The position numbers and the translations under genes were made by a program. This document shows positions 3,499 through 63,999 of a stretch of 64,000 bases of DNA, piece after piece. A model generated the notes under the pieces. It searched no databases. It worked only from the letters and a program-made list of their open reading frames with translations, and was not told the DNA's origin. This DNA is from Bilabrum cf. latius (lineage: Eukaryota): positions 1 through 64,000 of the forward strand of contig OZ237760.1 in assembly GCA_965178125.1 (NCBI GenBank). Reading direction: 5' to 3'. Every line of letters starts with the position of its first letter. Position 1 is the first letter of the stretch.

Positions 3499-6400
3499 TC
3501 AGGAAGGATTCGATAGTGTGAGCGGGCTTGCAGAGCGCGGCAAACTGAGTTCTTCCCTATCTGATCCATTGCTGAGGGACAGGAGCTCGGCCGGGTCGAA
3601 GCTGGCGTCGCAACTTTGTGCGCTGGTTCGACTTTCAAGCTGGTGCGGAGAATTATCCTCTTGAACTGCGTAGGCAGGCACAGCCACCTAGCGTTCCACG
3701 GTTCCGTCCTTTGTGTCTACACTTGCTGGTGGACACACAAGCAATCGGGCAGCTGGATAGATTGGATTATCCTGATGGTTAGCTGACTAGGCCGCTCTCA
3801 CTCGATCTCGCCTGGATGCCACTGCTGTACTGACACTAGGTTCTCCGTTAGCCTGCTGCTGCTACTAGCTACCGGTACCATCTCTGAGTGCGCCACCAGT
3901 CGCAGCAATATCTAGACCGCCCGTGTGGATCGACATTAACCCAAGATGACTGAGTGCAGCACTCAGCACGTGTCGCAGTATGTTTGCCACTGTGAAGCAC
4001 ATTGCGATGAGAACCACAGGCGACGGACCAAACGCGATCCTGCCAACCCGACCAGAGCCTACCGGTTGCGAACCGATCACCACTATCTGCAAACCGAGCT
4101 GCACTATGTCTTCGATTACTAACTAACCGATACTAAGCATACGAATCCTATGCACGAAGAGACGCCTTCTTGCAACGTCTTCCCGGTCGCTGGTCCCATA
4201 GAGACTGAATGCTGCGAGCCCTAGTAGCCTAGACGTCAGCAAATCCATGGACTTAATCCCAAACAGCGACAGGAACGATAGTCCTACCACCATGCTCCAG
4301 TGTTTGATCGTATGTTCTGGCAAGCCCTTCACGGGCCATGATTTTAGCATCACCACGATCAGCACCGCGTTGAGCACCACTGAACCCCCCATGGATGTCA
4401 GCCCAACAATCGCTAGGTCAGGTCTATCACACCATCTCTCCTGCGCCAGCTGGAAGACAAAGCCGCCGTCGCTCAGCACATCGGTCACTTGCATGCTTGC
4501 TCCTATCAGTGTAGTCGCCCCGTGTAGGTTGACTTGCTTCGCCTGCAATAGCAACAGTGACGCCACGGCCACAACAAAGAACGTTATGACTGTACCTACG
4601 GCAAAATCTGTGGTGTCATACTAGATGCTCGGGCACTACAGACCAAGAGATGGGACGCGCCATGCTCCAGGATAGCACCTGCATGTCTCTGCAGATGGTG
4701 CACCGGCAGACACAACTACAGTCAGCCCAGTTGAAGTGTTCAACAGCACGTTGCCGTCAGCCGAGACTACTTGCAGCGCTCTACCGGTCGAAACTCGTGT
4801 ACTCCCGTGCTAAACAATGTCGGCCATGCGCTACATAAAGCCCAAATTCGTGGTACCACGTAATTGTCGGAATGTGCGCGTACTTCCCTGCGCAGCTAGC
4901 GCCCGGAACAGCATCCGCTCGTGCGTCAGCTGTCGCAGCACAGCTGCACTCAGGTCATCGTGATCTCCACCCAATTGTTCCAAGAACTAAATCAGTACAC
5001 TCAACCGATTGGGCGCACTAGCTGCTGCACCAACCACTCTGATGCGATCGGACCAGTTGGGACGACTGCCGCCACCCGAAGTACGAGGGCTGCCTCTCAC
5101 TTCCTTTAGGTGAGCAGCATCTACTATGGCTAGCGGCAGCGCAACTCGCAGCAAGTTATCCCCAAATGCTGCTGCGGCACCGAGGGATGACATGTCTGGC
5201 TATACGGCTAGCTTAACTTGTGAAAAGACCGTTGCCTAGTCAGTGTGTTCGGCGCCCTGAGATGCATACGGCGGGATCGAGGTTGGAGTTGCACTCGCAG
5301 AAGTAGATGGAGTCGCCGAAGCGGACGAGGAAGGAGTTGGATCCATACTGGGGGATTCGCTGGGGGTCATGCTGGGTGTTGGTGTCGCTGATGACGTTGT
5401 ACTAGCCGTTGGGCTTGCCGATGGTGTCGAGCTCGGCTCTGGCGACGGTCTTGCAGACTCGTTGAAGACCCACAGTTGAGGATCCAGCAGCAGCTCGGCG
5501 TCACGAGGGTCGAGAGACCGCGCTGATAGGTACAAAAGCGGCTTGTCCCCTTGGGTATCGCTGTAGAAAGTAAAAAACTCTGGATCGCTGCTCTTCTACC
5601 CAAATGCGATATCTGCTGCTAGCATCGGGAACGGTTCCATGGCATCGTCCCAGAACCACGGCTCTCTTTCCGTTTCTGTCGTGTCACCAATGAAGTACAC
5701 GCTTGAAGTAGGGCTGCCGTCTGGATTTGGCTTCACCACAATGGGTCCGTCCGCCTCCACCTGGTCCGGCGTGATCCTAATGGGGGCCTGACTGGGGTCC
5801 GAGAGATTGGCTGCAAATAGCGACTGTATCGTCAGGTCGTCCTGGAATTCATGCCGAGCCATGAATAACAAGCGGTTGTAGTGACACAGAGAGAAGAAAC
5901 GCGCGCTGTAGAAGTCCTCTGTCCTGTTCCACTCGGGTCCCTGCTTGTCGAAGAGTGCAGACGGTGTGCTGGGCCCGCTCTGGGGCCCACCTGCCGATTC
6001 ATGTATCACCTGGATACTATCAGCACCGGAACCAGTCATTGAGTTGTATACTAGAATGCTCGGTGCATCGACGCCTTGCAAGCGCAGCACTGAGATGGCA
6101 GAGGGGCCGGAGCCCTGCGGTCCGGGGATCTCGTCGGACACTGTCTGAATGCTGCCCGATCCATTGAACCATCTCAGCTCTTCACCCTCTCCAAAGCTGC
6201 TTGCAGAAAAAAACAGCTTGCCATCAAATACAGTGAGCTAGTTTGGCTATGTTATCGCTTTGAATGCATCCACGTCATCCAAGCGCTCGAGTACTCCACC
6301 CAAATTTCCGTCATATCGCCAGAGTTGGGCTTGCAGGCTGCTATCGGAAAGAGACATATATAGCCAACCAGGAGAGCCCAATGACTGGTCGATACTACTC

Positions 6401-6906
6401 TGGTAGACGCAAAGCTCGGACGGAAACGAAGAAGCGGGCCCCTTTACCGCATCGAATGCTAGGCTTGCGTTGCCGCTTGCTGCAGCATCAACGTAGAATA
6501 GCTCGGCACCCACCAGTTCGTTAGATGCTTGGAAGAATAGAAATCCATTAAACTCAGTAAGATGCCTTGGAAAACTGCTGCTTTGCCCCGGGTTAATGTC
6601 CCCCGCCATGCGCAGCCTGCCAGTGGTTCCATCGTAAGCAAAGAGCTCGGTCCCAAACCGCGGATCTGTCGCAGGTATCCACAATTGTCCTGCTGACACG
6701 AGCATAGAATTCATAGGTTGAATATTCGCCGCAACAAAGGCGCCTCCCGCGCCCACGCCAGTGGCACGCCGTGTGGCTCCAGCCAAGCTTCGAGGATTTT
6801 CGTGCTGCGAGTTACGCACGTCATCGATCGAAATCCACCCTGAATTGCGCGGTTTCCGACTTCCCACGCACCAACCCATCACTAAAAATACTATCCCGCG
6901 TAACAT
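3499..6906 (-). CDS. ELWxxDGT-repeat (beta-propeller-like) protein with Ser/Thr/Pro stalk and multi-pass C-terminal membrane region, about 1135 aa (TAG=Gln)
   Basis: One frame joins ORFs 6247-7116, 5596-6141, 5236-5535, 4987-5193, 4123-4572, 3865-4104 and 3499-3687 through about 15 TAG and no TAA/TGA. Motifs: GTELFAYDGT, DINPGQSSSFP, LTEFNGFLFF, GEELRWFNG, a PSASPT stalk, hydrophobic helices and 'LVIEDIVQLGLQ'. Ends in TGA. The start ATG at 6906 is tentative. Confidence 0.8.
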
Positions 6907-7039
6907 ACTGTCTGTCGGCTCAGTTGGGATCCAAGCAATGCGCGGGACCCGGCGGCCCGCCGGGGTGGCGATGTAATGAAACCGGAAATCACTCGGCGCC
7001 GCGGTCTCCCGCCGGAGTCTCGTGTCCACAGCCGCAGTA

Positions 7040-9155
7040 ATGTACAGCCTAATAGTGTCAGCAGTATTACTATATGCAGCTGAAGTGTCTCTGTCCTTGC
7101 CACTCGCTGACAACAAGGTCCAACTTCAAGCCTGCGATTTCGTGGTTGCTGGGGGTTCGACTGCTTCGTTCGCGGCTGCTATCACTGCGGCAGAAGCGGA
7201 CCAATCACGCACAGTGTGCTTAACTGAAATGACTGACTGGCTGGGAGGACAAATGACTGCCGGTGGCGTCCCCGCAATCGATTTTGGGAGGTCCAACAAG
7301 GAGGCCAGCAACCAGCCGCGGAGCTTTCGAGACGCTATGGCCTTCCTCGGGCCCGAGTCGTACAATCCTGGCGCATGCTCTGTGAGCACGAAATGCTACC
7401 TTCCAGAACCGATGGCCGTAGATTTCATGGCGGCAAGGGCCGCGAAGTCATCGAATCTCAAGGTTCTGTATCGATCGGCGGTCGTCGCAACGTAGGTGGA
7501 TCCGGCTACAAAGCGTATCACCTCAATTGATGTGGTCCAGCGCACTCCGAAAGAGCCGTCATAGGAGTGGGACGTCAATCTGAGCGAGGATCTTCCAGAC
7601 TGGTACTCGCCTAACCCTTCCGATCGATTCGAAAAGTAGACCATTCGGCTAACCGGCAGTGTGTTTATAGAGGCGAGCGAATTGGGAGATGTGCTTGCGA
7701 CAGCAAACGTAACGTGGGCGCAAGGGGTGGAAATTCCTACCGAAACCAGCTTCAAGACTGACTCAACCTGCGGGCAAGCATGGACGCTCACCTTCTACAT
7801 GTCGTACCTCCCCGAGGGCGAGCATCCCCCGCCTGGCCCGCCCGTCCCACCCGGTTCAGGGGAAGGGCTGCCTTTTCCTCAGCCCTCAGACGCGTTCTGG
7901 ATGCACTCATGGACGTGGAGGCGGGCTGCATGCGGCGCAAACCGCTCCCTCGAGGCCGTGAACGCCCTGGATGTGACGCAGCAGAACCTCGGAAACGACC
8001 TTGACAGCGCGTACGTCTTGATCCCGCAGCAGGAGGCAGTGCGGCAGCGGCCCTGGCAGGGGGGCGTGAATCTGACAGCTCTGCGCATGTTGGAGGGCAG
8101 GGCATACGGGTACTACCACTGGATGAGGAACAACACCCCCAGCGGGGTGGACCCCTCTCGTATCATCCTGAACCGGACTGCTTCGGGGACCGGACACGGC
8201 CTCAGCAAGTGGCCCTACCTGCGAGACTCGAGGCGGGGCGTGGGGCTGGGAGACTTCCGGCTGCAGTACTGGGCCGAAGACTACTACAATACGAGCCAGC
8301 CGCTGTACGGGTACCACTTCAACGATTCGGTTGCGCTGTGAGTATTCTCATCGCCTTGCTTTGCCTTGTTTTTGGCGTGCTTGCAGGTCGAGTTTGGACT
8401 CGCGTGTGCGTCACGTCCGCATATGCACCCGATTCCTCCCCTTTCTCTCTCTTGTTCGCAGATCCAACTACAACTGCGACATCCACCACGGGGACTTCTG
8501 CACGTACCCGCCCTATCTGCAGGTGCACGAGACCAAGCCGTTCTACATCCCGTTCCAGGCCATGACCCACAAGGACGCCCCCAACCTGCTGCTAGCCGGC
8601 AAGACCATGAGCCAGACATTCCACGCGAACGGTGCTACGCGACTGCACCCTTCCGAGTGGACCGCGGGGGTGGCAGCTGGCGGGGCGGCTGTCCTCATGC
8701 TGCAGTAGGGCTGGCGGTCCACGGCGGAGGCTGAGGCACACGCAGACGAGCTGCAGCGATTCATCAATTCGACGCTCATCGGACAGCCGCTGGACTGGGC
8801 CACTGGCGACGAGCCGCCGCTGGCAGTTGGGTACGTGTGCTGGGAGCAGCGTTGCTTCCAGGTGGACTAGAAGCCCTCGGGGCAGCCGCTGTACCCCACC
8901 GATTCTTGCAGCGCGCAGTGCCAGCCACTGGGGGCGGACGAGTGGCTGGCGAACTCTGCGTACTGGACGATCCAGGGAGGGTATGCGGTGGCCAAGCAGA
9001 GCACGGTGCTGAAGAAGTCGACTGTGAATTCCCAGCTGCTGCCCCCAAAGGACGTGCTGGCGGTCAGTCAAGGGGACAGGTGCAAGCTGGTGGGACAGGG
9101 GCAGCGCTACCAAGAGGGCTACTACGTCTGCAGCCAGCAGGGATTGGCGGCGTGA
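7040..9155 (+). CDS. Secreted FAD-dependent oxidoreductase (FAD_oxidored-type), about 663 aa; intron 8338-8461
   Basis: Signal peptide MYSLIVSAVLLYAA; DFVVAGGSTASFAAA; ETDWLGGQMT-like motif; FIEASELGD; YLRDSRR; after GT-AG splicing DSVALSNYNCDIH, PFYIPF, NLLLAGK and ATRLHP. Five in-frame TAG; TGA stop. Confidence 0.85.
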
Positions 9156-9695: not shown

Positions 9696-12600
9696 ATGCC
9701 CAAACGCTCAGCTCGGGCAACCAGAGCATCGCACGAGGTGGACCGTGACTTGGATGTTTCAAGCGGCGGCAGCAGCGATGGCTCAGATGCATCAGGTGCA
9801 GTTGAGGCAGCAGGGAAGGCAAGCTCAGAAGCCAAGGAATCACGAATTGGAAGCCGAAAGGCTGCGGGTGCAACTATTTCACGAGGACAGTTTCGAACCG
9901 GACTTCGCCGTGTAGCAAAGGTGCAGTACGAAGACCCTGGGGAGCTGCCAGTTGCCTTGCTTCGTGCAGTAGCTTCTGATTCTCCTGAGCCAGGTAAGAA
10001 AAGAAGCCGCGCTGGTTCAAGTTCGCAGAAGCGCCGTGGAAGGCTGCCCAAGAGATCTGGGGCATCTGCTCAATCGGCTTAGTCCGCATCTGATTTGATG
10101 GATGGAACCGATGAGGACGAAGACGATGATGCTGATCGCTCTAGTGATTCTGACTTTGCCGCATCTGCATCAGGTAGGCGGCAGTCGCTGCGGCAGGCCG
10201 CAACACGTAGTCTGGGCCAGAAGCGATCGCGAAGCAGCTCGTCCGAGTCGTCTGCAGCGGAAGTTGGCAGTGGGAGCGATTCCGGTACCAGCGAGAGCGA
10301 AGTAGAGCTAGAGTCAGATTCGGAAGAGGGCGGGGGTGGAATGAAGAAGCAAAAGAAAGCGGGCCCATCGGCAAGCGCTCGCTCCTCCCGGGGGCGGGCA
10401 CCCGCCCGCAAGCGCCCCCGCAGCACAAGGCACCGGCACCCGCATGATCCTGGCTGCGGGTACGAGCTGCCGGCCTCTGTGACAAATGCAGCTGGATTCA
10501 TGCCTATGCCCAGCGCAGTGCTGGCCCGTCGCCGGTTCACTGCAGCCGAGTGGCTGGAGGCTCAGGTGCGCATGGACACGCAGTACGTGTCGTGTGGGGC
10601 TATTCTGTGGGACTGGGAGGACAGACCCATCCCCACACACGAGAATGTGGTATAGTACGCGCGTGCATGGGTGCGTCGGCAGGCCGCTGAGACGGAAGAG
10701 AAGGACAAGTTGATGAGCCCGGCCTCTGGGGCTGGCACCCCGCACAGGCGGACTGGCGTGGTGCACCACCTCCGGAAGGGCGTGGACTCTCCGATTGGCA
10801 GGCTTTAGCAGCACCTGTTTCAGTCCGGTGAGCTAGATGAAGCTGATTCAAGCGGCGGTGAGGCGTCCTCTTCTTCTGTCGGGTCCTCGTCAGCAGCTGC
10901 AGCGGCATCGTCGCAGCAGGACTCCCACCGCTCACCCAGCCGCACTCCAACAAGAAGTCAGAAAGGATCCCCGTTGCAGCCCGTGTCCCTGCCCGAGAAG
11001 CCGCAAGCCGAGGAACGCTATCTGGTCCGGTGGCGTGGCATCAGCATGCTGCACTGCAGCTGGGAGACTCGCCGTGGGCTTGAAAAGCTGCTCGAGTACT
11101 ACATCGAGGAGACTGACGTGAGCGTGGGCGCTTTCCGTACGCTCATGGGCAAGCTAGACGACATCCCGGTGGCCCCCAGCGGATGGTCTCCCCTGGATTT
11201 CATGACCGAAGAGGAGCTTGCCGGCGCTGAGCCCAGGCGAGTAATTGCTGCTCGGCTCACCTCCGAGGCTGAGCAGCTTTGCGTTAGCGCGAAGATCGAC
11301 TTGAGCCCCGTCAGCCTTCTTGAATGCCTCGTTCGTCAGCAAAATGAGGAAGACAACACTTTTTCTGCCAGCGAGGTGTTCGACTACTTCGAGTATCTCA
11401 CCGTGTGGGATGGCAGTCGGGCGGCCTCGAGCACAACCTGGGAGACTCGTGACGACATTTCAAACGATGATCTGCTGCACGCGTTCATGCGAAGGCAAGT
11501 TCCTGCACACTTGTTGGAGCGCCGCCAGCGGGATGTGGCGCAGTACCAGAATCTTCGCGCGAGGCGGGCTACCTCAAAGGCAAGCAGCAAGAGCCCATCC
11601 AGGCGATCATCGCCTTTTCGGTCGTCTTTACCCTCGGCATCCTCCAAGGGCCAGGTGGCAATGTCGGACGGGGACGGAATGGCAGCTGCAGCAGTCAGCA
11701 CTGCTAGTGGTGCAGCATCTGCGGTTACCCCGGACACAGCCACAGAGGACGAAGACGAATTTGTGGACGGGGATTTGAAGCCTGCAGAACCTCCACTGAA
11801 AAGTAGTACGGGCTTGCCGGTGCTCGCGCACCCGTACGAGCTTCCGAAGCTAGCACCAACACCCTCTTTCATCAGGTAGCACGCATTAAGGAGTGGCCTG
11901 GGTCCCGATGCCAAGCTACGGTCCTACCAGACTGTTGGATTGCAGTGGCTGCTATTTAATCACTCGCAAGGCCGTGGCTCAATTCTAGCGGATGAGATGG
12001 GGCTAGGCAAGACTCTGCAGATTGTCTCCTTCCTGTACTCTTTGATGTTCCTGCGGGGCGTGCAAGGCCCCTTTCTTGTGGTTGCTCCGGTCAGCACGCT
12101 TGAGCACTGGGAGCGGGAGAGCGAGCGGTGGTCCGGCCTGAACTGCTTAGTCTTCCGAGGACTCCCAGAGGCCCGCCAACAGCTACACCGCCACGAGTTC
12201 TCGCGAGGAATAGGTCCTGCGAGCGAGTCCAAGAAAGGGAGCAAATTGTCAACAGGAGCGCTGAACTAGGCTGTCGGAGGAGCATGGGCCAACGTGTGGG
12301 CATACCTCCGCGGAGACACTACTCTCGGAGGCAAGCGGTGCACCAAGCGGCAGGTCGAATCCATGTCGAGTCTGATGGATGCGTTGTACGGAGCGGGTAC
12401 AGCTGCAGCGCAGAAGGCCGCTAAGCGGGCACAGACAGCCCACCCTCCGTGGGTGCAGGGGTCGCGCAGCAAGTTTGACCTACTCGTTACCTCGTACGAG
12501 TATGCTGTTCGGTCCCCTCAGTTGGCAAAGGTGCCGTGGGCTTGTGTCGTTGTGGACGAGGCACACAGGCTGAAGAGTCCGTCGGCCCTGCTGTACAGGA

Positions 12601-15600
12601 AGCTGGAGGCTTACACCTTCTAGCATACGATACTAGTCACAGGGACCCCCATCCAGAACACCCTGAGCGAGCTCTGGTCACTTCTGCACTTCATTGATCC
12701 CGACGGGTTCCCGAGCTCGGAGGACTTCGAGACGGAATTCGGCGACGGCTCTGGATCAGCCAACCCTGCAAAGATAGATGCGTTGCAGAAGATCCTCCGT
12801 AAGTATCTGCTTCGTCGAGAGAAAACAGACGTGGAAACCACCCTCCCTGAGAGGAAGGAGATTATCGTTGAGGTGGCCTTGTCATCCCTGCAGAAGCGGT
12901 GCTACCGCGCTATCTTTGACAAGAATGCGAAATACCTGAACCAGGGGCGAACAGGTAGCGGCGATGTGAAGCTTGGACACATGCACATGCTGCTGAGGCA
13001 CTGCTGCAACCACCCCTTTCTACTCGAGGGCGTGGAGGATGCGGTCCGCACGAGGGACGGTCCCGATGCGGACGTGTACGACATGTACGACAGGCTGGCC
13101 CGGGAGAGCGTAGGGAGTGAGCTTGCTGCGCTTCCCAAAGAAGAGAAAGATGCCGTCCGCGTCGACACCGCGCTGGTGCGTTCATCTGGCAAGCTTATCC
13201 TGCTGGAGAAACTGCTGAAGCACCTGAAATCTCAGGGTCGCAAGTGCCTGGTGTTCAGTCAGTTCGTGATGGTCTTGAACATCTTGGAGGACTTTTTGAA
13301 TCTCAGGGGATTCAAGTACGAGCGGATTGATGGCAATGTCACCGGCTTCGTGCGACAAGCAGCCATTGATCGGTTCTCTCACAAGGAGTCGGAGTCATCT
13401 GTCTTCCTGCTGTGCACGCGGGCGGGCGGAGTCGGCATCAATCTCACCGCCGCAGACACAGTGGTGATTTATGACTCAGACTGGAACCCTCAGAACGACT
13501 TGCAGGCAATGGCTAGGGCGCACCGCATCGGGCAAACGAAGAGCGTGACGGTGTATCGCCTAGTGTCTCGCAATACGTACGAGTCCGAGCTGTTGAACAT
13601 GGCCGCGAAGAAGCTTGGGCTGGATCGTGCCATCCTCGGAAATATGGTTGATTCAGGCGGCAAGAAGGGCAAGAAGGACGCGAAGCTCACCCAAAAGGAT
13701 ATGGAGCTGCTGCTGAAGAAAGGCGCGTACCACCAGCTTGGGCTTGGACAGTCGGACGATGTCAAACCCGACGATTTCAAGGAGGAGCAAGAGTACTTGA
13801 GTCGCAGCATTGAGGATATCCTTGCGAATGCAACCACTCGTAGCGCGGAGCCAAAGCAGGAGGCAGGGGGGGGATCTTCATTCGCCAAGGCCTCTTTCGT
13901 GGCCGAGGAGCAGCGCGGAGCGAAGCAGGTCGACTGGAACGACGACCAGTTCTGGAGCAAACTACTTCCGAAAGGCGCCGGCGCTGCAGGCGAAGACGAA
14001 GCCCTGGCCATGCTCACCGCCGGGGGACGCACGCGAAGAAGAGCCAGGAAGCTGGTCAACTACTGCGAAGAAGAAATCGAGGCGCAAAGAGCTCATTTTA
14101 GGCGGCTTGCTCGTGAACACAAGAGGAGGGGTACCCGCATGCCGGACTACCTTGCAGAAGACTCAGGGGAGGACACATTTGTGCCAGAGGCCCAGAAGTT
14201 GACGGACCGCTCCAGATAGGACGTGTTGCAGTATCTGTAGCGGTAGTCGTTGCCACTCGCTGAGCCGGACCAAGGCGCCCCTGCTGTGGATGACGCCTTG
14301 AACCGCTCATAGGGTGACATCCCGTAGTGTGCGATCACTGCAGACTAGCCTTGGCAAGTGGCAATCGAGAGCTTGCCGCCTGCATTGCGACCGAGCAAAA
14401 AAGCCGTCGGCCATCAAAGCATGGACCCATTCGATGCTGGCGTTGAAAAGATGTCCGATGGCCCAGAACAAGCTACCGTGGGCGACGACGATTCGGAGTC
14501 TGATGCCAGCTCAGTGGAAGTGCTGTCTGAGAGTAACGTTGGAAATGTTTTTGCCGCCCTCATAGCGACCCACGCACTCGCTACACAGGCGTAGACACAG
14601 TGCATTGTGAAGGGGTAGTTTGACTGTGCCTGCTGCACAGTCGCTGCCGCTTACTTGGGCAAGCTCCACGAGCTACGGGGCAAGGTCTGGCTCCAATTGT
14701 TTGCAAGCCTGCGGTTCGGCGAGAGCTTGCGACGCGTCGTCGATCGGGCGTCGGACCATGCGACCAAGGTGTGCGTTGATGCGTTGCGCAATCAACTGGT
14801 TGAATTGCGGAGGTGCTCCACGTAGTTTCCATCACTTGATAGCTCCGGCCATCCAGTGCCAACGGCTGCCAAAGCGAGGGAGGACGCGATCTCAGAATGC
14901 TTGCAGCGGCTGAGTTCTATCTGCACCAGTTTGCGCCAGTCCATGGACGCCAACAAGGAGTCGCTTCCCGAGGCGTGGAGCTACATCTAGCGGTCCACGG
15001 AAGGTGCCGCACTGAGCAGCGCCGACTCGGGTGGTCCAGCAAGTGGAGTGGGGCGGTCGGATAACAGCGGCGCGAGCGAGAGCAACGGCAGCCTGAGCAA
15101 GCAGGCCGAGTCGGACAACGACGAAGATGATGATGACCCGGAGGAAGGTGACTCGGAGAGCGAGTCCGGGGCCGAGGAAGCCCAGGGTATCATCGATATC
15201 CTCATGGAAATCGTCGAGCAGGTCGAAGAGGATGCCGGGCGGGACTTCTGCCCGCCGTACCACCGGTCAGGCCAGCATGTAGCAGAAGAAGCGATGCAGG
15301 CCATTCACGCGATCATTGCTGACCGGGCCGAGTCGATGCCGTCGCCTTGTCCAGCCGCTGTGGCGTGTGCTTGGGTGCTGGGCTGGGTCTACAGGCGCCC
15401 TCTGCACCGCTGCGTGTTTGTCACGAGCCACCCGAGGTACGTCGGGTACGTGCGCGGCCCCGACCCACTGAGGTATGGCTACTTCGATGACGAAGAGAAG
15501 AGTTTGTTGCGGATCGACATGAGCGTGCCCGTGGCAGTGCGAGCCGGGGCGGCATACCCGTATGTCAAGTCGTCCTCTGAAGCGCCTGCGGCAAGCGCAG

Positions 15601-23418: not shown

Positions 23419-23704
23419 TCTGGTCCTGCGATCCGGGCAAGTGATTCAGTGGAAGACGACGTAGACGCCACAAAAGGATCGGGGGAAGGCGTCGGTGCGA
23501 AGAAAGTATATGTATGATATTTAGAATCCGATTGTGATGCTCACAATACTTATTCAAAGTGCAGAAGAGAAGGGTTACGGTGTTTCCTTGGCGTGGTTGT
23601 CGGTTCGGCATGAAATCGGATTTCTCGACAGCAAAACCACGCGCTACAGGCTACATAGCCGTGTTTGCTCGTTCGATGCTATTTGTTGAGACTTAAGCTC
23701 CAGC

Positions 23705-29859: not shown

Positions 29860-29914
29860 GGTTGCTAGAGTCGCGTCTGCGGTCTGATACTTGAATGCAA
29901 ACGGGCGGTGCTCA

Positions 29915-45093: not shown

Positions 45094-45260
45094 TGGGTTG
45101 GGTGCGAATCAATTTGGCTTATTATTTTTTCACACGAGTATTTGTTGCGTGTAGTTATCCTTGGCACATTATGGATCGCGGTTTTGCCACACCTCCACAG
45201 GTGATCATCTGAGACAGTTTTAGAATATCCGGTTATTTTTTACAATCTGGTTTAGTGGCT

Positions 45261-51200: not shown

Positions 51201-53273
51201 GCTCCAGGGGCGCAGGCATTGCCTTGCGTGGTGGCTCCGACTGCTGCCGTGCTTGTGCTGGGGGACAAGGGCGCAGGGGGACAGGCAGGCGGGCAGTCGA
51301 CCGGGAATGCAGCAGTTGCGGCAGGTACAGCCGGAGAACTGCTGCCACAGTACAGCAGCGGCAGCGGGCCTATGGAGGCGGTTGACCCCCAGGTGGACTG
51401 GTGCCGGCCATGCGAGGACAAACCAAGGCTCCTGCGGTCTCCCAAGCTGAGCAAGGCAGCGGGACCCGGAGCACAGGCCGCTGTGGGCGACACGGTGCTG
51501 ATGGCAGTTCCTCCCATGCAGCGAGGCCAGGTGGTCAGGCTTTGGATGGCGGTGGACTTGCCCGAGGGAGCGGCACTGGGGGCTTCTTCTGCATCAGATG
51601 GACCCTCGCCCGCGCCGAAGGCTGTGGGGGCAGGAGGCAGTAGCGGTCGCACACCATCCGCCGCAGATGTCGCCCTGGCTCGCGGGGCGCAGGTGGCCGT
51701 GTGGGCCTCTGCGGAGGCTCTGCTGGCAGGCCATGCCCTTGGTTCCAGCGGTGCCGACTCCGATGCGGACGCGAAGGCCGTGCTTCGTGCCATGCAGCAG
51801 CGGGCCAGCGCGGTGGAGCGTGGCGTGGGCCCCGGCAGCATTGCTTGCACGTCCAGGGCACACGCTCTCCTGCCCGTGGCTGCAGCCTTCAGGGTGGGCG
51901 TGTCCTGCCGAGGGGACCCGGTGTGCCCCCCTGCCGACCTGCACGGAGCGCTCGGGCCTGAGCTGGCGGGCTTGCTGGGTGCTCTGCCGGTTCCTGCCGT
52001 GGCACGGGCTGGCATGCCAGCCGCCGGTGGAAGAGGGGCAGGGGAGGGGCAGGACGCGCACGCTGCGGTGCTGGCGCCTGGTGGGCTGGTGCAGGCGTGT
52101 GTGAGGCTGTCCACGGGCGCCAGTAGCGCGGTGCTCGCGGTGCGGGGACTTGAGTGGACCTTGGAGACAAGGGCGGAGGGTAGCGGCGAGGGGGCATCCC
52201 TGGGCCTGACGCCTGCACTGGAGCAGTCGCAGATTGACTACCAGCTGCAGATGTCCTCGGTTCGGGCGCCGCGCATGGATTTCAGAGATGATGATGCAGG
52301 TGCAGGTGTAGGTGCAGGTGCGGGCGGTGCCAATGGGCGTGGGCACGGCGAGTGGCCCAGGGCTGTGCTGGTGGCCCCGAGGGGCGCGCACAACTTCTTG
52401 CTGGCTGCACGGGCCAGCGGCGAGTGGCCAGCCGCCCTCCTCGAGGCCAGGTCCCGCGTGTATGAGGCTATCCGGCGCGCTGGCGAGGAGGCCGGCACAG
52501 TCGGCGCCCCGGACTCTGTAACCGAGGGGTTGCTGCTGGCCAGGGGAGGGGGCGGCCTGGGGGAGTTGTTCCCCAACGGGGGGGGAGAGAGGGAGGTGGG
52601 AGTTCCGGTCGCATTGTAGTAGGAAGAACTGGGAGCAGGGGGGGCCTCAGTGACTGCTTGTTCCCTGGGCCGCATCTTGGTGCGATGGCGGAGGGGCACC
52701 GTGGGGGAGGCAGCGCTGGTGATGGGCAAAGAGGTGCCCAGCGGACCCAGCTTGGACGACGAGATGCCCCCTTGCCTCCGCAGCAGCGGGGAGTTTAGGT
52801 GCATGCTGCCTGCAGTGGCGGTGGTCAGGCAGCCCGTGCAGATGGCCGCCCAGTTGCCGCGGGTGCTGCGGGCGGGTGCACCCGCTGCCGGCGTTTGGGT
52901 GGCCGTGAATCGGTCTGCGGAGCCCCTGACCATCCGTGTGAGGCTGGCCGAGGGCGCGCCTGGCCCGGGTGCAGGCGGAGCGGCCGGCGGGCAGGGGGCC
53001 AGGGAGAGGCTGCTGCGGCAGGGCGGAGCGCGCATCGGGGTCGTTGGTGCTGTAAGCAGGGTGCTGCTGCTGCCCCCTCGATCGTGTGTCGCGCTGCCGT
53101 TCCCAGTGTAGGTGTCGGCTGGGGAAGAGGGCGGAGTCGCGCCTGCGCCCGTGGTGCAGGCGGACATCGTGCAGGTCGGAGGGGCTAAAGTTGCCTAGGC
53201 CAAGGCTGCCTGGGTCGGATTCGCTCCCTCGATGCCCTTCCCTGTGACGGTTTTGCCCCGCGACAGCCCTTGA
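45261..53273 (+). CDS. TRAPPC11: TRAPPC11 (foie gras/Gryzun)-like trafficking protein, greatly expanded, about 2670 aa
   Basis: The N-terminal YPPEVL, VLRRSWLPKHH...VPLLLV...QWE...EVEGLRARAQGR..LHVVLV...RLAQLR pattern matches TRAPPC11 as remembered, and the C-terminus is beta-rich. One 8-kb frame with about 12 TAG; TGA stop. Confidence 0.68.
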
Positions 53274-55500: not shown

Positions 55501-55756
55501 GTCAAGCGATGGGAAGAAGAGTGGGCGCGAAGCAATCCTGGTCTTGTGTCTGCGCCAAATACGAATTCTGCTCGCTACATTTATGAATGTAGCGTGTATA
55601 TTTTGCACTTGCACTACGGTTTTCGGCACGTGATACGGTTGTAGCCCATCTACCAGTAGATACGAAGCTTCTGCGAACCATCAATCATTTTTTATTAGCT
55701 GTTCATAGCAATCACGGCGTGCTGGGCATATAGAGGCAACTGTTTGCTTGAAGGAA

Positions 55757-58700
55757 ATGAACAAGAGGCTGTCAGAGCGCCGCCCTGCTGATGGATGCGA
55801 TACTTGTACGCGAGCTGCTCAGTCCCGCATCCCGAGAATAGAGCTGCTTAGCTGGGTAGCATCATATGATTCAAATGCAGCGATAGGGGACATTGCAAGT
55901 GGCACTGTCATCTCAGTCATGCTGATTCCGCAAGGCATGGCGTACGCCTCCTTGGCTGGCCTTCCGCCGATATACGGGCTGTATGCATCTATTATGATGC
56001 TATTCATATATCCATTGTTTAGCACGTCGCCACCGCTGGCAGTAGGGCCGACTGCGATGCAATCTCTGCTGACCGCCTCAACGATAGCCGACATGGGCGT
56101 CGACGCGGACGCGGAGCCTGACCAGTACCTAAAAATTGCGTTTCGGCTGGCCTTTCTGGTCGGACTGGTGCAAATTGTAATGGGGCTGCTGCACGCCGGT
56201 TACCTGGTCAACTTCCTGTCGCAGCCTGTGCTGAAGGGGTTCACGGTGGCGGCCGCCCTCATCATTGGCAGCTCGCAGCTGTCGCAGGTGTTCGGCCTCC
56301 GCGACTTCCCGTCCACCTCTCAGGTATATGAGACGTGGTACGAGGTGGTGATCCGTCTGGGCGACACGCACGGGCTCACGCTCGCCCTCGCCGTGGAGAG
56401 CCTGGCCATGTTCTACGGCCTCAAGTGGCTCAAGGCATTCCTGCGGTCGCTCCCGTGCGTGGAGAACGACCGCTCGCACACGTGGTCCAAGCTCATCAGC
56501 GCAGTCCCGGATGCTCTCGTGGTGGTCGTCTTCAACATCGCCCTCAGCGCGGGGCTCGGCTTCGAGGACGAGGGCGTGGCAGTCGTGGGCTCCATCCCCA
56601 GCGGGTTCCCCTCGGCCACGAACCTCTTCGCCACTGCGGCGGGGGGCGCCACCTTCGCGTCTGACCTGGGGGCCGTGCTGCCCAGCGCGGTGGTAATGGC
56701 CGTGGTGGGCTTCATGGAGGCCATCTCAGTGGCCAAAGTGCTCGAGGGGAGGTACCCCAGGCCGCTCGACTCGAACTAGGAGCTGGTGGGGCTGGGCGCG
56801 GCCAACGCGTTTGCGTCGTTCTTCGGGGGCTTCCCGGGCACGGGTGCGTTTTCGAGGACGTCCGTGAACGCGGACGCTGGCGCCAAGACACCGGTGACCT
56901 CCATCGTGTCTGCGGTGATTCTGTGCCTGACGGTTCTCTTCCTGACCCCGCTCTTCTACCACCTGCCCAGAGTGACCCTCGGATGCATGATCATATTCGC
57001 GGTCATCAAGCTATTCGATGTGGAGACTCCCAAGATGCTGTGGGCGGTGTCTCTCTCGGACTTCGTGGTGTTCATGAGCACCTTTTTGGCTACGGTGGTG
57101 CTGGGCATCCGGAACGGCATCCTCATTGGGGCTGTCATCTCTCTCGCCAGGCTCATCCAAGAGGCAGCATCCCCCGAGGTGGTCCCCCTGGGCCGAGTGC
57201 CGGGCACGCAGAACTGGCGGGACATCCGCCGGTTTGGGTGCAAGGGAGCGCGTCCGGAGCCGGGCGTGGCCGTTGTGCGATTCGAGTCGCACCTCTTCTT
57301 TGCCAATGCGGGCCGGTTCAGGGACCTGGTGCTGGGGCTCTCCTTCCCGGCTGCAGTGCTGCAGGGAGCGGGGGCGTCGGGGGCCGCGGCCATGGAGGAC
57401 GAGGCCTCGCTGGCGGGCGCAGGGTCGCATGTTGGCGGGGGCAGCGAGCTTGGCGCTGGCCCATCGGCGGTTGCTGTGAACGTAGGAGGACCGGCCAACG
57501 GCAGGTCCGTGGGCTCCGGTTCCGCTGGGCTAGGCGTGGGCGTGGAGCTGGGACCCCTGTCACGGCCGGCCTCCGTGGGCTCCGCCGGCAAGGCATCAGC
57601 AGAGGATATCGAGACGGACTCGCCCGAGGACGAGGACGAGGATGGGGGCGAACAGGCCAGGGAGCAGTGCTCCCGCATCCTGACGGGGCAGAGCGGGTCT
57701 GGGCAGGCAGCAGCTGGCGGCGACGAGCTGCTGTCCAGCGGGCTGGCACCTGAGGCCGTGGTAGTGGACTGCAGCGTGATGTCGCAGCTGGATTCGAGCG
57801 CGCTGGACGCGCTGGAGCAGCTGCCCAAGGACCTCAAGAAGCGAGCGAGGGACATCCGGGACGCGAGGATCGGCAGGCTGGAGGGCTGGCTGCAGGACCT
57901 GGCTGCACAGGACCAGGATAAGTCGAGGGGCGGGGACCAGGAGGGGGCGCAGGGAGCCAGCGCGGTGGCCGAGGTGCAGCGCCCACCGGCGGCAGCAGCA
58001 TCTGGCGCCCTGTCCACCAAGACGCAGGGCGGCAGCCGTGCCAATGGCGGGGATGAGGAGGACGATGACGACGAGGTGGTGCAGGCGGCACTGCAGGCAG
58101 CCCAGCAAAGCTCGGCATTCCGGGAGCTGCTGGCCATCGAGACCACCTGCGGGGGTGCAGTGTCCGCGGACCGTGCCCGCGCCATGGGCGAGGTCACTCG
58201 CCACTTCCTGGAGGCGGAGATGGCGTGGTATAGGAAGCGCTTCGGTCCGCTCAGCGTGGTGGAAGAGGCCGCCCTGCTGGACATCCACGACCCGTCCACT
58301 GACTGGAGATACAGGCAGGACGCAGAGCTGCTGCGGGCCAGGCTGGTGGAGCTGGGGAGAGTGCCGCTCAAGATCCCCAAGCTATACCTGGCATGCCTGC
58401 GCGGCAAGGCGCAGGAGATGCTGCGGAGGAACGACGATTACGTGGCCCGGGTGCAGGTGGTGCAGCGAAGAGCGAGGCGACGGACGCTGTGGACGTGCTA
58501 GTGGCCGTGCGAGGTCACCAACCCCTGCGAGCACCTGTGCTGGGAGGGGTGCTGCGCCGGGGAAGAGGCCCGTGAGGAAGAGGAAAAGCAGCGCGGTGGC
58601 GGCGGCAGTGGTGGTGATGGAAAGGTGGAGGTGGCAGCAGAAGCAGCTGCAAACAGTGCAACAGGGGGTTCACATAGACAGCAGGGAACGGGGACACTGA

Positions 58701-60031
58701 CAGCCCCAGTGGCATCAGCCGAGCCTGCAGCGGAAGTCCCTCGCTCTCCGGAGCGGGTCCAGCCTGGACACGGCTCGCTACCGCTCCCTGCCGCCCCTGC
58801 AGGATCACCCCCGTCGGTCATCCGGGTGCAGCGGCTGGACTCGGATGCCAGTCTGGGCCTGGCGGTGGCAGGCAGCCCCCGAGTGAGTGGGCCGCTGGAC
58901 ACGAGCGGCATCGGCAGGGTACCGCTGCCGAAACTTCCCTCGAGCGGACTGGAGGGCGGGCCGGAGGGTGTGCCTGCAGTCGATGGGGAGGAGAAGGGTG
59001 TCGCTGATGCAATGCATGGAGAAGGAGGGGCGGGGGCGGAGGCGGAGATGGTGCGCAGCCGCCCCAGCAACGGCGGTTTGTCCGAGAGCAGCGCCCCTGA
59101 GGGAACAGAGGACGTGGGGTTCGCCGGGCAGCGGGTGTCGCACGACGTCGCGCTGCTATCGTACGTGGTTCAGGACGACGACCTGCATGAGGCGGTGGAG
59201 AAGGTGAGGCAGAAGGTGCTGCGTGCGGCGCTGACTGACCTGGCTAGGTGGGGCACTGGGCGAGGCGAGGTGGTAAGTCGCCGGGAGGAGCAGGAGGCGG
59301 GTGGGTTCGTCTCGGCGGGCGTCTGGAAGGACTTTCTGCGGCAGAGGAGCTCTGGCACCGCTGCCTCTCGCGTAGACCTGCTGGAGGGCGTGGATCTGGG
59401 CGCGGCGGGGCTGAGGCAGCGCCGGGGGAACAACGGGAACGGGTCTGTAGGCAGCAGCGGGCAGAAGTCGGGCCTGGCAGCGGACTCCAAGTCAGAGGCG
59501 GGGTCCCAGGACCAAGACGGCGTGGGCCTTGGCCTGATGGGGGGAGATGGACTGCACGCAGGTGCGGCCCAGAGGGAGGGCCCAGCGCCGGTGCACGTGG
59601 TGCGCGCCTCCCGAGACACCTCCTCGCACTCGCTGCGGCAGGGGACTGGGACCATACGGGCGGTGAGGAGGCACACCTTCTAGGACCTGGGCGCCGCCCT
59701 CAGGGGCAGGGCCAGCTCCACCAACAGCCCGCGGGGGGTGCCACGGCGCAGCCACCTGGGGCGCTCCCCGCTCGCGTCGTCTGGCTCGCCGGGGGCGCTG
59801 CCGGGAATCGCCGGGCAGGATCGAAGAACCCCACGAGGCAGTCGATCGTCGCCCTTGTCGCAGGTAGTGCACGCCCAGGCCAGGCCCGCGGCGGTCACGG
59901 CGCAGCGAGCCGTGGCGGACGAGCTTGACAGCCGGCGAGTGCGGCGCAGCACTGGGGAATCTCCGCTTCGGCGAGTTGCTACAGAGGCCGCAGGAGATGA
60001 AATGCCCACTGGGGCAGCGGAAATCGTATGA
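55757..60031 (+). CDS. SLC26/SulP anion (sulfate) transporter with interrupted STAS domain and long tail, about 1424 aa
   Basis: GDIASG, IPQGMAYASLAGLPPIYGLY, FLSQPVLKGF, LDSN*ELVGLGAAN, FSRTSVN..AGAKT and STAS motifs (RFESHLFFAN; VVVDCS.MSQLDSSAL). TAG at 56777, 58499 and 59681; TGA stop. Confidence 0.93.
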
Positions 60032-60156: not shown

Positions 60157-63100
60157 TCACTGCCGCCCGTCCTCATCACCTCCATCCTCGCCGGACGGTG
60201 CAGCCGCCGGGGCGCGAGCGAGGCCCTGCGGGCCCTTCCGGCGCTTGCGGTTCCGCTGCTTCTTGCTGCCGGCACCCTTTCCCCCGCCCGCGGGAGCCGG
60301 GGCCTGCTGACCAAGCGAGTCCAAGCTGTAGTCGCCCCACTCGTCGCGCAAGAGGCCCGTGTACTGGGCGCCCACGCGCCTCCCCGCCAGCTCGGCAGTC
60401 TCGCGGAGGACCTGCGCCTCGGAGGCGCCACCGGACCGGTCCACGGCGGACTCGGGGCTCTCAAAGTCGAGACCCTGGCTGATGACGCGCGCGCCAGCCT
60501 CCAGCTGCCTCTCCTCCACCTCGGCCGAGAGCGCCGCACGGCGAGCCGCCACTCTCTGGGCCTGCCTCCGCTGGCTCCGCCTGCGCCCGGCGACCCACCC
60601 CTCCGAGCCTGCCACCCTCTCGCCCGCCTGCGCCCGCAAGCCTTCCACGACCCCCCGCGCCGCGTCCAGGCCGGTCTTAGTCTCGAAGGCGGTCTCGCCC
60701 CGCACCAGCTCGTCCTGGTCGTCGAAGGCGCCATCGTGCGGTGCACCCGCCCACGCGTCCTCGGGCTCCACTGACCCCCCGTGCATGGCCGTGGGCTGCT
60801 CCTGCTCCAGCACACGAGCCGCCAGGGATCGCGCGCTGCTGGCCGCCGCCGCATCGTCCGCCGCCTCGGGGGCGCTCTTGACGCCCCTCTTCCGCAGACC
60901 AAGGCCCAGGCTCGCCCGCTCGTCCGCGTCCCCAAGCTCCGCCAGAGTGGCCTGCACCTGCCAGCCCTCGGGCTCGGGCCCCACCTCCTCCAGCATCGCC
61001 GCCCGCACAACTGGGCTCTCCTCCTTGGCCACGATTGGCAACACGCCCATCCCGTCAAGGGCGTCCTCGTCGCCCGCACGCGCCGCCTCCTCAAACCCAC
61101 GCAGCTCGGCCAGCTCCTCGTCGTCGCTTAGCCCATCCTCCTCCTCCTCCTGCTTCCCGCCGCGCGATGCCGGCTCGGCACGCAGCCCCGCCCGCCGAGC
61201 CCGCAGGCCAGTCAGCCCCGGGAGGTCCCCGGCCCGCTGCACGTCCTCGCCCACCGCCAGCTCACGATCGGCCGCCTCCCGCTCCTCCTCCAGCAGCACG
61301 CGCAGGGCGCCCTCCTGGTCCCCGCCCGCCGCCATCTCGGCCGCGAGCTTAGAGGCGCGGCCCCACCCGGCAGACGTCGTGGGGGCCCCGTCCAGCACCT
61401 GCCCGGGCTCAAGCGGCGTGTGGGCGGCCCGGCCGTGGATGGCCTCATCCGCGCCCACCCACGCCCGCTCCAGCTGGTCCACCCCTCCCCGCTGGAGCGC
61501 CTTCTCCCTCCTGGCCTGCTGCTCCTCGCGCTCCTTGGCCGACAGCAGGCCGGGTGCAAGAGCGCGTGCGGCGCTCCGTCGGAGGGAATCGGCGCGCTCC
61601 GCCGTGGAGAGGGCTCGAGCCGCCCCGGTGTACCCTGCGCCGCCGCCCTCCGCCATGACTTCCTCCACGTCTCTGTCCGGAGCCCTTAGGCCCGCCCCCC
61701 CGTCGGGCCCCTCCTCAAGCATGGCAGCCACCTCGTCAGCACTCAAGGGGGCGTCAAGGTCCTCCAGCTGGCCGCCCTGCGCGCGCAGGTGCTTGATGCC
61801 CTCCAGCTGCTCCCGCACGTCGGCCACGAACGGCCGCGCACCAATCCGCTACAGCAGCTCCTGGTCCCGCTCGAAGGCGCGCGGCGCCCTGCCAAGCTGG
61901 GCCGCTTCGCGGGCGCTGTGCCGGGCCTGCGTAGACAGGGCAGGCACGAGCGGCCCGTGCAGCGACATGTCCTGCTCGCCCGTCGAGCCGCTCAGCAGGC
62001 CGTCCATGGCGCCCAGCATCTTGCCCTGCCCCGGCCCCAGGCGAGAAGACACCTCGGTGGCGCGCCGCTCGGCCTCCCGCAGCAGCTGGGACGGCCGCTT
62101 GCCCACGGCGGCCACAGCCTGCAGCCGCAGCGGGCCCCCGAGGGTGGGCGTGTCGTCCGTGGTGCGAGCCACGCCGTCCGTCCCCAGCCCCATGCGCGTG
62201 AGCATCTCCTCGTCCAGCAGCGCGGGATCGCTGGGCAGGTTCTCGTCCACCCGGTCCAGCCACTCGGCCTCCTCCAGGTCCTTCTCGGTGAGCTGCACGT
62301 CGCCGGCGGCGGCCCCGCGGAGCCTCCTGGCCAGCGCAAGCTGCCTGGCGGCCACGACCTGCTGCCACTGCTCCCTCACCTGAGCCTCGACCTCGTCCTT
62401 GGCCTCGGCCTCTTCCAACACGGACGTGTCCACCTCGGGGGGCGGCTGTCCCCTCCGGATGCGGTCCGCGTAGTCCTCCGCCCCGCCCGCGCCTCCGAGC
62501 ATCTCCTCCCGGATGCCCGAGTCACCCGTTTGCTCGGCGAGCCCGCTGATGGCGTGCCACTCCCGCATCTGCCTAGTGGGGTCAAGCACCCAGTGGTACC
62601 TCGCGCGCACCAGGTCGCCGAGGTCGCCCTCGCCCTCACCCCGCTGCAGACGCTGCCAAGACTCCTGACGGAACTTGCGCTCCACCGCACGCTCGGCCCT
62701 CAGCTGCGGGATGTGTTCCCTGCGCCGGAGCACCAGCTCGTGGTCCGGGGCCAGAGGCCTGAGCAGCTAGTCTACCTCTTTGGCAGAAGCCCCCGGCAGC
62801 CATGCCCTAGCCTTGGCTGCAGCAGCCTCCCTATAGGCCTCAACGCCACGCTCCGAGGCGTCCGCGGGCACGCGCTCCTCAGCGTCCTTCCGCCACAGCG
62901 AGCCGCCAGAACCCAGCTGGTGCGCCGCTGCGGTGGGCCCTCCCTTCTGCATGAAATCGTCCCTGCCCATGAGACGGGCGTTAGCGCGGAACTCGGCCTG
63001 CATGGCTTCGCTGAGCGTGCGGGCCGAACCCTCGGCCACAAGCCGGTGGGTCACCTTGACCGCCACCTAGGGGTTGCTCTTGAGAGTCCGCAGCACGGAG

Positions 63101-63999
63101 CGCGCCCACGGTGTGTCCTCGGAGCGCAGTCGCTGGTGAATCTCATTAACGCTGCGGGCCTGCGGGACAGACACGCGCCACTTGTCCACGTCCGCGAATG
63201 ACTGGGTCACGCCGCGGGCCACCTGCAGCAGCGCGGGGTGCTCGGGCATCTTCAGGGCCTTGAGCAGCACCTCGGGATCGTGCACCAGGGCAGCCAGGTG
63301 CCCGTCCTGCAGGCCCTCGGCGCCCATCTCCAGCAGCTCCTCCGTAGCCTTGACGTGCCCCTCGAACGTCTCCGCCCCGGGGCCACGGAGGGCCCAGCGA
63401 ACGGGGTTTCTCGCCTCCGCCGAGCCCCCGGGGTCTACCTCGGGCTCGTCGGTGCCCGCGCCTCCCTCCCTCTGCTTCGCTCCTGCACGGCGCGCCCCCG
63501 CTCCGATGTCCGCAGGTGCAGGCGCAAAGCCCATCGCGGCCCGCTCTAGGTTTGCGTCGGAGCGGGAGGGCGTGAAGAGGTGCCCGGTGACGCGCTACAC
63601 GCCCAGCAGGGCCGCACCAGCCACAGGGTGCACGCCCATCGTGTTGGTGCCGATGCTGGCGTCGAAGCCGCGGTACCCGTGGGCACCGGCCGGCAGGGGC
63701 TCGGAGGGGTGCATGCCCAACCAGCCGCCCTCGTCAGGCCGCGCAGACGCCTTTGTGGACTCGAGCCCGAACAGAGTGGCGCTCGGGCCCCGCACCAGAG
63801 GTTTCTTTGCCCCCGACTGGCTCGTGCTGTACCAACCAGCGTCGAGGAGCAAGGGTGCCCTCCGGTTGTGCAGCGCGTCCAGAGCGTCCGCATACGCCCT
63901 CGCACGGGACCTCCGGGCCTCGTCGTGGACGTGGAGCTCGGGGTCCGTGTCCATGGCCGTGCTCAGCTGCGCGGCAGCCGGCATGTCCGCTGGAGCCTT
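60157..63999 (-). CDS. 5'-truncated large protein containing a 3-hydroxyisobutyryl-CoA hydrolase (ECH_2)-like C-terminal subdomain and a long acidic/Ala-rich extension
   Basis: One frame across ORFs 63595-63984, 63067-63534, 62767-63066, 61849-62733 and 60157-61827, joined by 4 TAG. SVNEIHQRL..EDTPWARSVLRTLKSNP*VAVKVTHRLVAEG..RTLSEAMQAEFR...DDF resembles HIBCH. TGA stop; the start lies outside the window. Confidence 0.7.

Follow-up and report, generated by a model that had tools for sequence, protein, structure and literature searches.

Does UAG terminate translation in the organism from which this DNA derives, and if it does not, what does it encode? The question is raised by the first 64,000 nucleotides of contig OZ237760.1, assigned to Bilabrum cf. 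latius (the window, by which we mean this whole stretch; coordinates refer to it unless stated otherwise, and TAG denotes the codon at the DNA level). An earlier examination of the letters alone, which we call the original prediction, had proposed that UAG is here a sense codon, most likely for glutamine (Gln, Q). The explanation that best accounts for the data assembled below, and one that we consider very likely to be right, is that UAG is an ordinary sense codon, most likely Gln, and that UAA and UGA still terminate.

If the standard code is applied, no stop-to-stop open reading frame (ORF) in the window is longer than 859 amino acids. Reading through TAG produces ORFs of 2686, 2386, 1619, 1564, 1465, 1280 (running off the window), 1208, and 1163 amino acids. 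In control translations, read-through of TAA left the longest ORF at 859 amino acids and the number of residues in ORFs of at least 600 amino acids at 3035, and read-through of TGA gave only unspecific ORF lengthening, to a maximum of 1171 amino acids. The original prediction had counted about 110 in-frame TAG codons in 15 of 18 genes. Its total agrees well with our 108 (~104 of which follow the first ATG), but its gene tally does not: 15 frames could be defined, with the two exons of the NAD(P) transhydrogenase gene (NNT) counted as one gene, and 13 of them hold at least one TAG. It had also stated that the fused frames lack internal TAA and TGA, and this is so for all 15, which terminate in TGA (12) or TAA (3). 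The other two reading frames of 14 ORFs contain 36 and 52 TAA and 259 and 259 TGA codons. Pfam domains and homolog alignments continue through TAG in SNF2, Sulfate_transp, and NNT; the SNF2 match in a gene for a CHD-type chromatin remodeler runs across TAG 12267 and 12621, and the Sulfate_transp match in an SLC26 transporter gene runs across TAG 56777.

Sequencing runs that contain this DNA provided a view of the messenger RNA (mRNA). At least eight runs, from four studies, share at least half of the sampled words of the stretch. For four of them (X1, X5, X6, and X7; four studies), contigs rather than raw reads were aligned to positions 9700–29650, a region of 19,951 bases with 35 in-frame TAG sites. 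Contigs from X6 and X7 (two studies) skip 17125–17229, 25566–25682, 23227–23314, and 23425–23543, four stretches of 88–119 nt bounded by GT..AG on the coding strand, and contigs from X1 and X5 retain all four. From these spliced GT..AG joints we infer that X6 and X7 derive from RNA; the repository record lists neither as RNA. The 117-nt intron at 25566–25682 lies in NNT and holds the only in-frame TGA of that gene (25636). In-frame TAG sites were covered at 35 positions by X1, 16 by X5, 32 by X6, and 24 by X7, and every covered site was unaltered in all four runs; the sole differing letter in the 19,951 bases is 14181 G>C in X7, at a site that is not TAG. Because the spliced contigs keep TAG, the codon is present in the mRNA, which answers, at the level of contigs, the check that the original prediction had recommended.

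These results bear directly on the possibility that the TAG codons are never translated and stem from errors of assembly, RNA editing, introns, or decaying pseudogenes, which deserves consideration since systematic errors can occur in any single assembly. Nothing was found in its favor. Runs X1, X5, X6, and X7, from four studies, are concordant at each covered TAG, and the spliced contigs retain TAG and are colinear with the genome, which fits neither editing nor introns; at the contig level, assembly error, editing, and intronic location are excluded. Decay would not have spared the same frames from TAA and TGA, and relatives of the window organism display the same pattern. We therefore regard an artifactual or untranslated TAG as a negligible prospect.

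The relatives came from two sources. A metagenome scan yielded the loci L002 and L003, whose NNT is 82% identical to that of the window and which are syntenic with window positions 25679–36082 (L003 with 27319–36082). The L003 ortholog of the window's NHL-repeat gene (L003 positions 2699–7708) is a 1669-amino-acid ORF in which TAG occurs 24 times in frame and TAA and TGA not at all, and the L003 genes terminate in TGA, TGA, TAA, and TAA. The relatives' database proteins (P-numbers below) are ORF fragments, cut at their own TAG codons. At least three sequence-distinct organisms, that of the window included, thus share the predicted reading of UAG as sense. ORF fusion, domain alignments that cross TAG, TAG in spliced contigs, and the like behavior of related organisms bear out the first part of the original prediction: as far as sequence data alone can show, it is virtually certain that UAG is a sense codon.

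We next consider the two other stop codons. In-frame TAA occurs zero times in ~17,900 codons, and ~22 occurrences would be expected if it were used as CAA is (99 × 114/503). With this deficit, and with three genes ending in TAA, a code of the table 6 type, in which UAA and UAG both specify Gln, was ruled out. The TAA of NNT sits at the conserved C-terminus of the family, where L003 has TGA and where the database protein P0417 also ends. Homology anchors six terminators, those of NNT, CDK, and COQ2 in both the window and L003, and each of them is TAA or TGA. UAA and UGA hence remain stops, and the code is of the NCBI table 15 type, in which UAG is Gln and UAA and UGA terminate; the comparison with that table in the original prediction was apt.

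A more subtle alternative is that UAG is Gln inside genes and yet terminates near some gene ends, or that competition from eRF1 makes its decoding inefficient. Our ORFs were defined by reading through TAG, hence a terminating TAG would go undetected among them. TAG codons do occur near annotated ends, at 24524 and 24539 in a gene for a small membrane protein and at 59681, 117 codons before the TGA of SLC26, and the ORF of the relative's SLC26 protein P0241 ends exactly at window TAG 59681. Set against this are the six homology-anchored terminators, none of which is TAG, and the NHL pair of the window and L003, in which coding similarity persists past TAG (for example, SHAAVQ). Inefficient decoding would, with 108 TAG in 15 frames, abolish most of the long proteins. 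We consider such a dual role unlikely.

The identity of the amino acid was examined first in distant homologs. TAG 25711 (+) in NNT, within PR-x-SRA-Q-x-x-DALSS, aligns with Q in 119 of 119 homologs. At TAG 56777 (+) in SLC26 (LDSN-TAG-ELVGLG), 148 representatives carry Q 94 times, followed by R (29), K (8), T (4), A (3), H (3), N (2), and L (2), with no glutamate (Glu, E) among the residues listed. The original prediction had named both sites among its pointers to Gln, and all five coordinates that it cited are exact (TAG 23777, 25711, and 56777; 3853–3867 on the minus strand; and 33594–33617). Its third pointer, the run TAG TAG CAG CAG CAG at 3853–3867 (−) in the first gene of the window, is likewise good evidence. 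The fourth, a 12-nt tandem duplication at 33594–33617 in the NHL gene, is present as described (CTGCACCAGCGC followed by CTGCACTAGCGC) but amounts to just one C/T difference. TAG 23777 had been assigned to an MPDU1 gene, a label that we could not support: the frame at 23690..24577 matches only PQ-loop, at E = 0.26.

Several distant comparisons count against Gln. TAG 28009 (+), in the NNT linker (REAI-TAG-VD), faces E in 57, V in 57, T in 3, and L and P in 1 each of 119 homologs. The chief exception to Gln is TAG 12621 (+) in the SNF2 region (AYTF-TAG-HTILVTGT), where 120 homologs, mostly vertebrate CHD6-9, show E108, D6, N2, and Q, K, G, and T once each. Among the first 28 matches, which are more diverse, E still leads (18), ahead of D (4) and N (2), with single occurrences of Q, A, K, and G; within the nearest clade the column varies, reading D, D, E, E, N, E, N, Q (Pythium), K, E, and G. 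A Codetta-style profile test over five TAG columns gave Q 0.43, E 0.27, and K 0.20 under the default entropy weighting of HMMER, which is weak; for the same five columns, unflattened weighted counts gave Q 0.998. The four TAG columns compared between the GH5 glycosidase and three distant chains of solved structure all vary (G, P/I, E/A, and T/P) and were uninformative. An attempt to deduce the meaning of TAG from its flanking residues, which left V, Q, and M nearly tied, was discarded, as the procedure recovered only 4 of 28 control codons.

Closer relatives permit site-by-site comparison. P0241 (SLC26, 89% identical) has Q at window TAG 56777 and at TAG 58499 (+), where its context is identical to LWTC-TAG-WPCE apart from the Q; at 56777, Q is found in relatives at 89%, 62%, and 58% identity. 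Q also stands at TAG 28009 in P0417 (NNT, 98.6% identical) and at TAG 18636 in P0412 and P0423 (82% identical), whose ORFs end at window TAG 18804. Over relatives of 82–99% identity, Q occupies five of the seven window TAG sites that are spanned. Exchange in the opposite direction is seen as well. The ORF of P0420 ends at window CAG 26713, and those of P0410 and P0421 end at window CAG 21783. A TAG in the L003 CDK gene (SYLY-x-LL) aligns with a window CAG and with Q in all five PDB alignments shown (human CDK3, three CDK1 entries, and CDK2), and two TAG codons of the L003 COQ2 gene align with window CAG (FVSN-Q-WL and LVGG-Q-LL). At the invariant NNT position 25711, where the window has TAG, the codon in L002 is CAA. 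TAG exchanges mainly with CAG/CAA and Gln residues.

Other comparisons of this kind disagree. P0410 and P0421 (95–96% identical) have E at TAG 21633, the ORF of P0253 (98% identical) ends at window GAG 56570, and P0414 and P0424 (65% identical) have L at TAG 14217. L003 has I at window TAG 28009, two further L003 COQ2 TAG codons align with window GTG and AGC, an L002 TAG aligns with window CGG, and a rhodanese TAG faces K in L003, beside a gap; the comparisons other than those with E or I give L, R, V, S, K, and A. The NHL pair, 45% identical, contributed only the 8 of 42 TAG columns with local identity of at least 0.5, and the other 34 were dropped for low identity or gaps.

In all, 26 pairwise comparisons were collected, the rhodanese site included, with Q in 12, E in 4, L in 3, R in 2, and I, V, S, A, and K in 1 each. 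A BLOSUM62 conditional likelihood over this set is ~1 for Q, 2.6e-5 for E, 4e-7 for R, 1e-7 for K, and lower for the rest, values that come from hand-collected comparisons, a rough model, and an identity cut-off of our own choosing, and in which three "ORF end" comparisons take the relative's terminating codon, itself not seen, to be TAG. Four of five non-overlapping subsets favor Q (0.64–0.98); a two-site subset, with one L and one K, favors K (0.18).

UAR is reported to encode Glu in peritrich ciliates and Blastocrithidia, and a reading of UAG as Glu would draw on the CHD column at 12621 (E in 108 of 120), the NNT column at 28009 (E in 57 of 119), the two close relatives with E at 21633, the relative's ORF that stops at window GAG 56570, and the share of 0.27 that the default-weighted profile test leaves to E. 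It is difficult to reconcile with an NNT position that is Q in every homolog, with the lack of E among the residues listed at 56777 for 148 homologs, with the relative's CDK TAG at a conserved Q (SYLY-Q-LL), or with TAG codons inside a run of CAG. Close relatives, moreover, show Q at five of seven sites, and E accounts for 4 of the 26 comparisons. GAG, the most frequent codon (788, versus 503 for CAG), differs from TAG by a single transversion, and some E-to-Q sites are therefore expected if UAG is Gln. We judge Glu to be very unlikely.

UAG could also specify another residue altogether (such as Leu, Lys, Arg, Tyr, or pyrrolysine). L appears at 14217 and at two NHL sites, R, K, V, S, I, and A turn up in other individual comparisons, and UAG is read as Leu in a rhizarian and some ciliates, according to the parts of PMC5304391 and PMC11687900 that treat these codes. 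At 25711, no such residue is seen among the 119 homologs, and the likelihoods of R and K given above, with those of the rest lower, make a meaning of this kind highly improbable. Gln is thus the best-supported meaning of UAG, as the original prediction had it, on the strength of the columns at 25711 and 56777 and of the 26-comparison likelihood, and we hold it to be highly probable.

How might UAG have come to be read as Gln? On the pattern of other lineages with this change, UAG would be decoded by a glutamine transfer RNA (tRNA-Gln) whose anticodon changed from CUG to CUA, and recognition of UAG by eRF1 would have been lost or weakened. UAA would stay a stop because a CUA anticodon cannot pair with it. 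A tRNA-Gln(CUA) combined with an altered eRF1 is the model discussed for other UAG-only reassignments in the relevant section of PMC11687900. Scans of the window for tRNA genes and for Rfam families were both empty, as was a tRNA scan of the loci L001–L006.

TAG makes up 99 of 716 Gln codons (14%) in 14 ORFs, with CAG at 503. Its share is 5–7% in NNT, SLC26, and the ECH_2 gene and 17–33% in the CHD, NHL, rhodanese, and first (3499–7125) genes. The rarity of TAG in the most conserved genes fits a reassignment that may be fairly recent and that would then have spread by C-to-T change at CAG, with occasional changes at GAG, TTG, and other one-step neighbors. E, L, K, and S are encoded by one-step codon neighbors of TAG, and a spectrum of non-Q residues such as that observed is what UAG as Gln predicts for a young codon.

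Certain observations bear on the extent of the trait. In the more distant NNT relatives L001 and P0002 (48% and 56% identity), the complete NNT frame contains no in-frame TAG, and the reassignment may for that reason be restricted to a shallow clade. L001 and L004–L006 are distant NNT homologs that carry no information on the code, the first of them being free of in-frame TAG. When contigs of prokaryote genomes were scanned with an NNT relative, only bacterial homologs at 32–40% identity were recovered.

To which lineage might the organism belong? The window opens with a (CCCTAA)n array (1–499), followed by 13.5 copies of a 155-bp subtelomeric repeat (498–2568) that is broken by a telomere-like array at 1717–1910; a second long interstitial (CCCTAA)n array occupies 2628–3162, and a 53-bp repeat follows it at 3165–3390. 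The two interstitial telomere arrays suggest past telomere healing or subtelomere duplication. Guanine-plus-cytosine (GC) content climbs from 53% to 72% along the window. Telomere array, subtelomeric repeat, and spliced introns together identify the window as a nuclear chromosome end of a GC-rich, intron-poor eukaryote. No named NCBI protein is close to the window proteins. A FastTree phylogeny built from 542 columns of the SNF2 region in 28 sequences places the window apart from animal CHD6-9 and within a clade that Blastocystis, oomycetes, and diatoms bracket (Shimodaira-Hasegawa-like support 0.88), stramenopiles being the only protist supergroup sampled. An NNT tree, in which the mis-framed L002 row was disregarded, places the window outside the green-algal and animal clades. 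These single-gene trees with narrow sampling weakly suggest a stramenopile affinity, as a lead rather than a placement.

The organism does not look like a ciliate, given its TTAGGG telomere and high GC content, nor does it look like an anaerobic fornicate, given its genes for a mitochondrial NNT and a ubiquinone-pathway prenyltransferase (COQ2). The algal parasite Amoeboaphelidium, in which UAR encodes Gln, was rejected as a candidate: its genome GC is 40% (table 1 of PMC10608142) as compared with about 62% here, and named matches were absent.

UAG as Gln with UAA as a stop is already known from Iotanema spirale, Hartmannula sinica, Trochilia petrani, and Protocruzia tuzeti, as set out in the pertinent sections of PMC5304391 and PMC11687900. 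Iotanema spirale resembles the window organism in that UAG alone was reassigned, to Gln, with UAA kept as a terminator, and in that TAG is a minority Gln codon (~8%, as PMC5304391 reports, versus ~14% in the window). Unlike that organism, the window is GC-rich (53–72%), with TGA (12 of 15) rather than UAA as the main terminator. The other three, all ciliates, were assigned the same code on the same grounds as here, namely UAG codons in frame where Gln is conserved (PMC11687900). Ciliates differ from the window in their CCCCAAA-type telomeres and short chromosomes, as described there, where the window has CCCTAA/TTAGGG and extends over at least 64 kb, and in having UAA as the main stop, as opposed to the high-GC setting here. 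For two ciliate assemblies with UAG as Gln, too, the part of that study dealing with suppressor tRNAs reports none found. Codes of the table 6 type, with UAR as Gln, are recorded for Amoeboaphelidium protococcarum, hexamitid diplomonads, Streblomastix, ulvophycean algae, and many ciliates in the passages on code variants of PMC5304391, PMC6299283, and PMC11687900; these lineages are alike in the change from stop codon to Gln and in TAG at Gln positions, and unlike in that UAA is not a sense codon in the window. The rhizarian exLh and certain phyllopharyngean ciliates read UAG as Leu, and Scotinosphaera reads it as Ser (PMC5304391 and PMC11687900, same passages). Those lineages share the uncoupling of UAG from UAA, but Leu and Ser are strongly disfavored in the window.

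A full-text literature search, of incomplete coverage, returned UAG as Gln for neither a stramenopile nor any other GC-rich aerobic protist. The feature is real and is a further case of a known code variant, in an apparently new lineage. With rather more doubt, we suggest that it could be the first nuclear stop-codon reassignment in a stramenopile-affiliated or otherwise unsampled aerobic eukaryote, an independent origin of UAG as Gln with UAA as stop, found in a small clade of at least three organisms (about 99–89% and 82% protein identity) with a GC-rich, TGA-terminating genome. Nuclear code changes are rare, and those in which UAG and UAA differ in meaning are rarer still. An unrelated GC-rich lineage with relatives sharing the trait would add an independent origin, in a compositional setting opposite to that of the AT-rich ciliates and fornicates with this code, and would bear on how UAG is captured. 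It would put to the test two ideas on UAG-only capture, the inability of a CUA anticodon to read UAA and the infrequency of UAG among terminators, and species pairs at 82–99% identity would allow the spread of the new codon to be tracked site by site.

There is a practical side as well. Gene callers that assume the standard code fragment the genes of this lineage (for example, P0001, P0411, and P0241). Since its genes are cut at TAG in the databases, annotation and metagenome binning of the lineage are currently wrong. Public protein collections contain the genes of the lineage only as TAG-cut fragments (P0001, P0411, P0413, P0415, P0422, P0241, and P0253), and some of these start at GTG, as is typical of a prokaryote-style gene caller.

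Pfam identified genes for a CHD remodeler, NNT, a CDK, an NHL-repeat protein, UbiA/COQ2, a rhodanese, an AAA/RNA12-like protein, GH5, SLC26/SulP, and ECH_2, and three long frames lack any Pfam family. The first gene, adjoining the subtelomere (3499..7125, −), is one of these, a 1208-amino-acid frame with 15 in-frame TAG and a TGA terminator. It is followed by one of three regions (7126–9359, 37900–39250, and 53300–55600) in which overlapping open frames on both strands, without a Pfam match, allowed no convincing gene to be defined; these may be intron-bearing genes or non-coding DNA.

The chromatin remodeler (9696..16697, +) has Chromo, SNF2-related, and Helicase_C domains by Pfam, in keeping with its original label as a CHD helicase; 19 TAG follow its ATG, the whole frame from 9537 holds 20, and it ends in TGA. 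The 105-nt GT..AG intron at 17125..17229 (+) is absent from X6 and X7 contigs and retained in X1. The next frame (17139..21833, +) has 1564 amino acids, no Pfam family, 10 TAG, and a TAA terminator. A single 11-kb X6 contig (10670–21846) leads from the interior of the CHD gene through a 440-bp spacer into this next gene, with the intron skipped, and represents either overlapping transcripts or read-through between neighboring genes. For the 1449-amino-acid protein at 17484–21830, the sole distant match comes from a mollusc and is labeled "coiled-coil domain-containing protein" (28% identity, E 2e-24); it bears two recent Pfam families. The window protein may be an uncharacterized but conserved eukaryotic protein.

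On the minus strand, a TAG-free gene for an acidic repeat protein (22029..23294, TGA terminator) has introns 23227–23314 and 23425–23543 near its 5′ end. It repeats a 12-residue acidic unit (AAEDKKEDGEAA) ~20 times in tandem and has by far the greatest X6 contig depth within 9700–29650, up to ~1340 as against ~52 for its neighbors. The small multi-pass membrane protein (23690..24577, +) has 3 TAG and a TGA terminator. NNT (24841..28536, +; AlaDh_PNT_N/C, PNTB_4TM, and PNTB) consists of two exons with 4 TAG and ends in TAA. A TAG-free last exon of a CDK1/2-type kinase (28783..29625, −) ends in TGA, and the 1619-amino-acid NHL-repeat protein (30168..35027, +) has 18 TAG and a TGA terminator. The last exons of the UbiA/COQ2-type prenyltransferase (35106..36188, −) carry 1 TAG in frame and end in TAA.

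The genes of the remainder of the window all terminate in TGA: a rhodanese-domain protein (36519..37880, +; 6 TAG), an AAA/RNA12-like protein of 1163 amino acids (39257..42748, +; 4 TAG), and an endoglycosylceramidase-like GH5 glycosidase with a GH5 C-terminal domain (43048..45108, −; 7 TAG), followed by the three genes described below. The closest solved structures to the GH5 protein are bacterial endoglycosylceramidases (E 7e-25), and its ~170-residue low-complexity insertion may be an unrecognized intron. The frame at 45213..53273 (+), of 2686 amino acids with 12 TAG, had been called TRAPPC11-like, a label that finds no support, as no Pfam family matches at E ≤ 1. The SLC26/SulP transporter with a STAS domain (55634..60031, +) has 4 TAG, 3 of them after ATG 55757. 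The last gene, whose 5′ end lies beyond the window, encodes a protein with an ECH_2 (enoyl-CoA hydratase/isomerase-like) segment (60157..63999, −) and contains 4 TAG.

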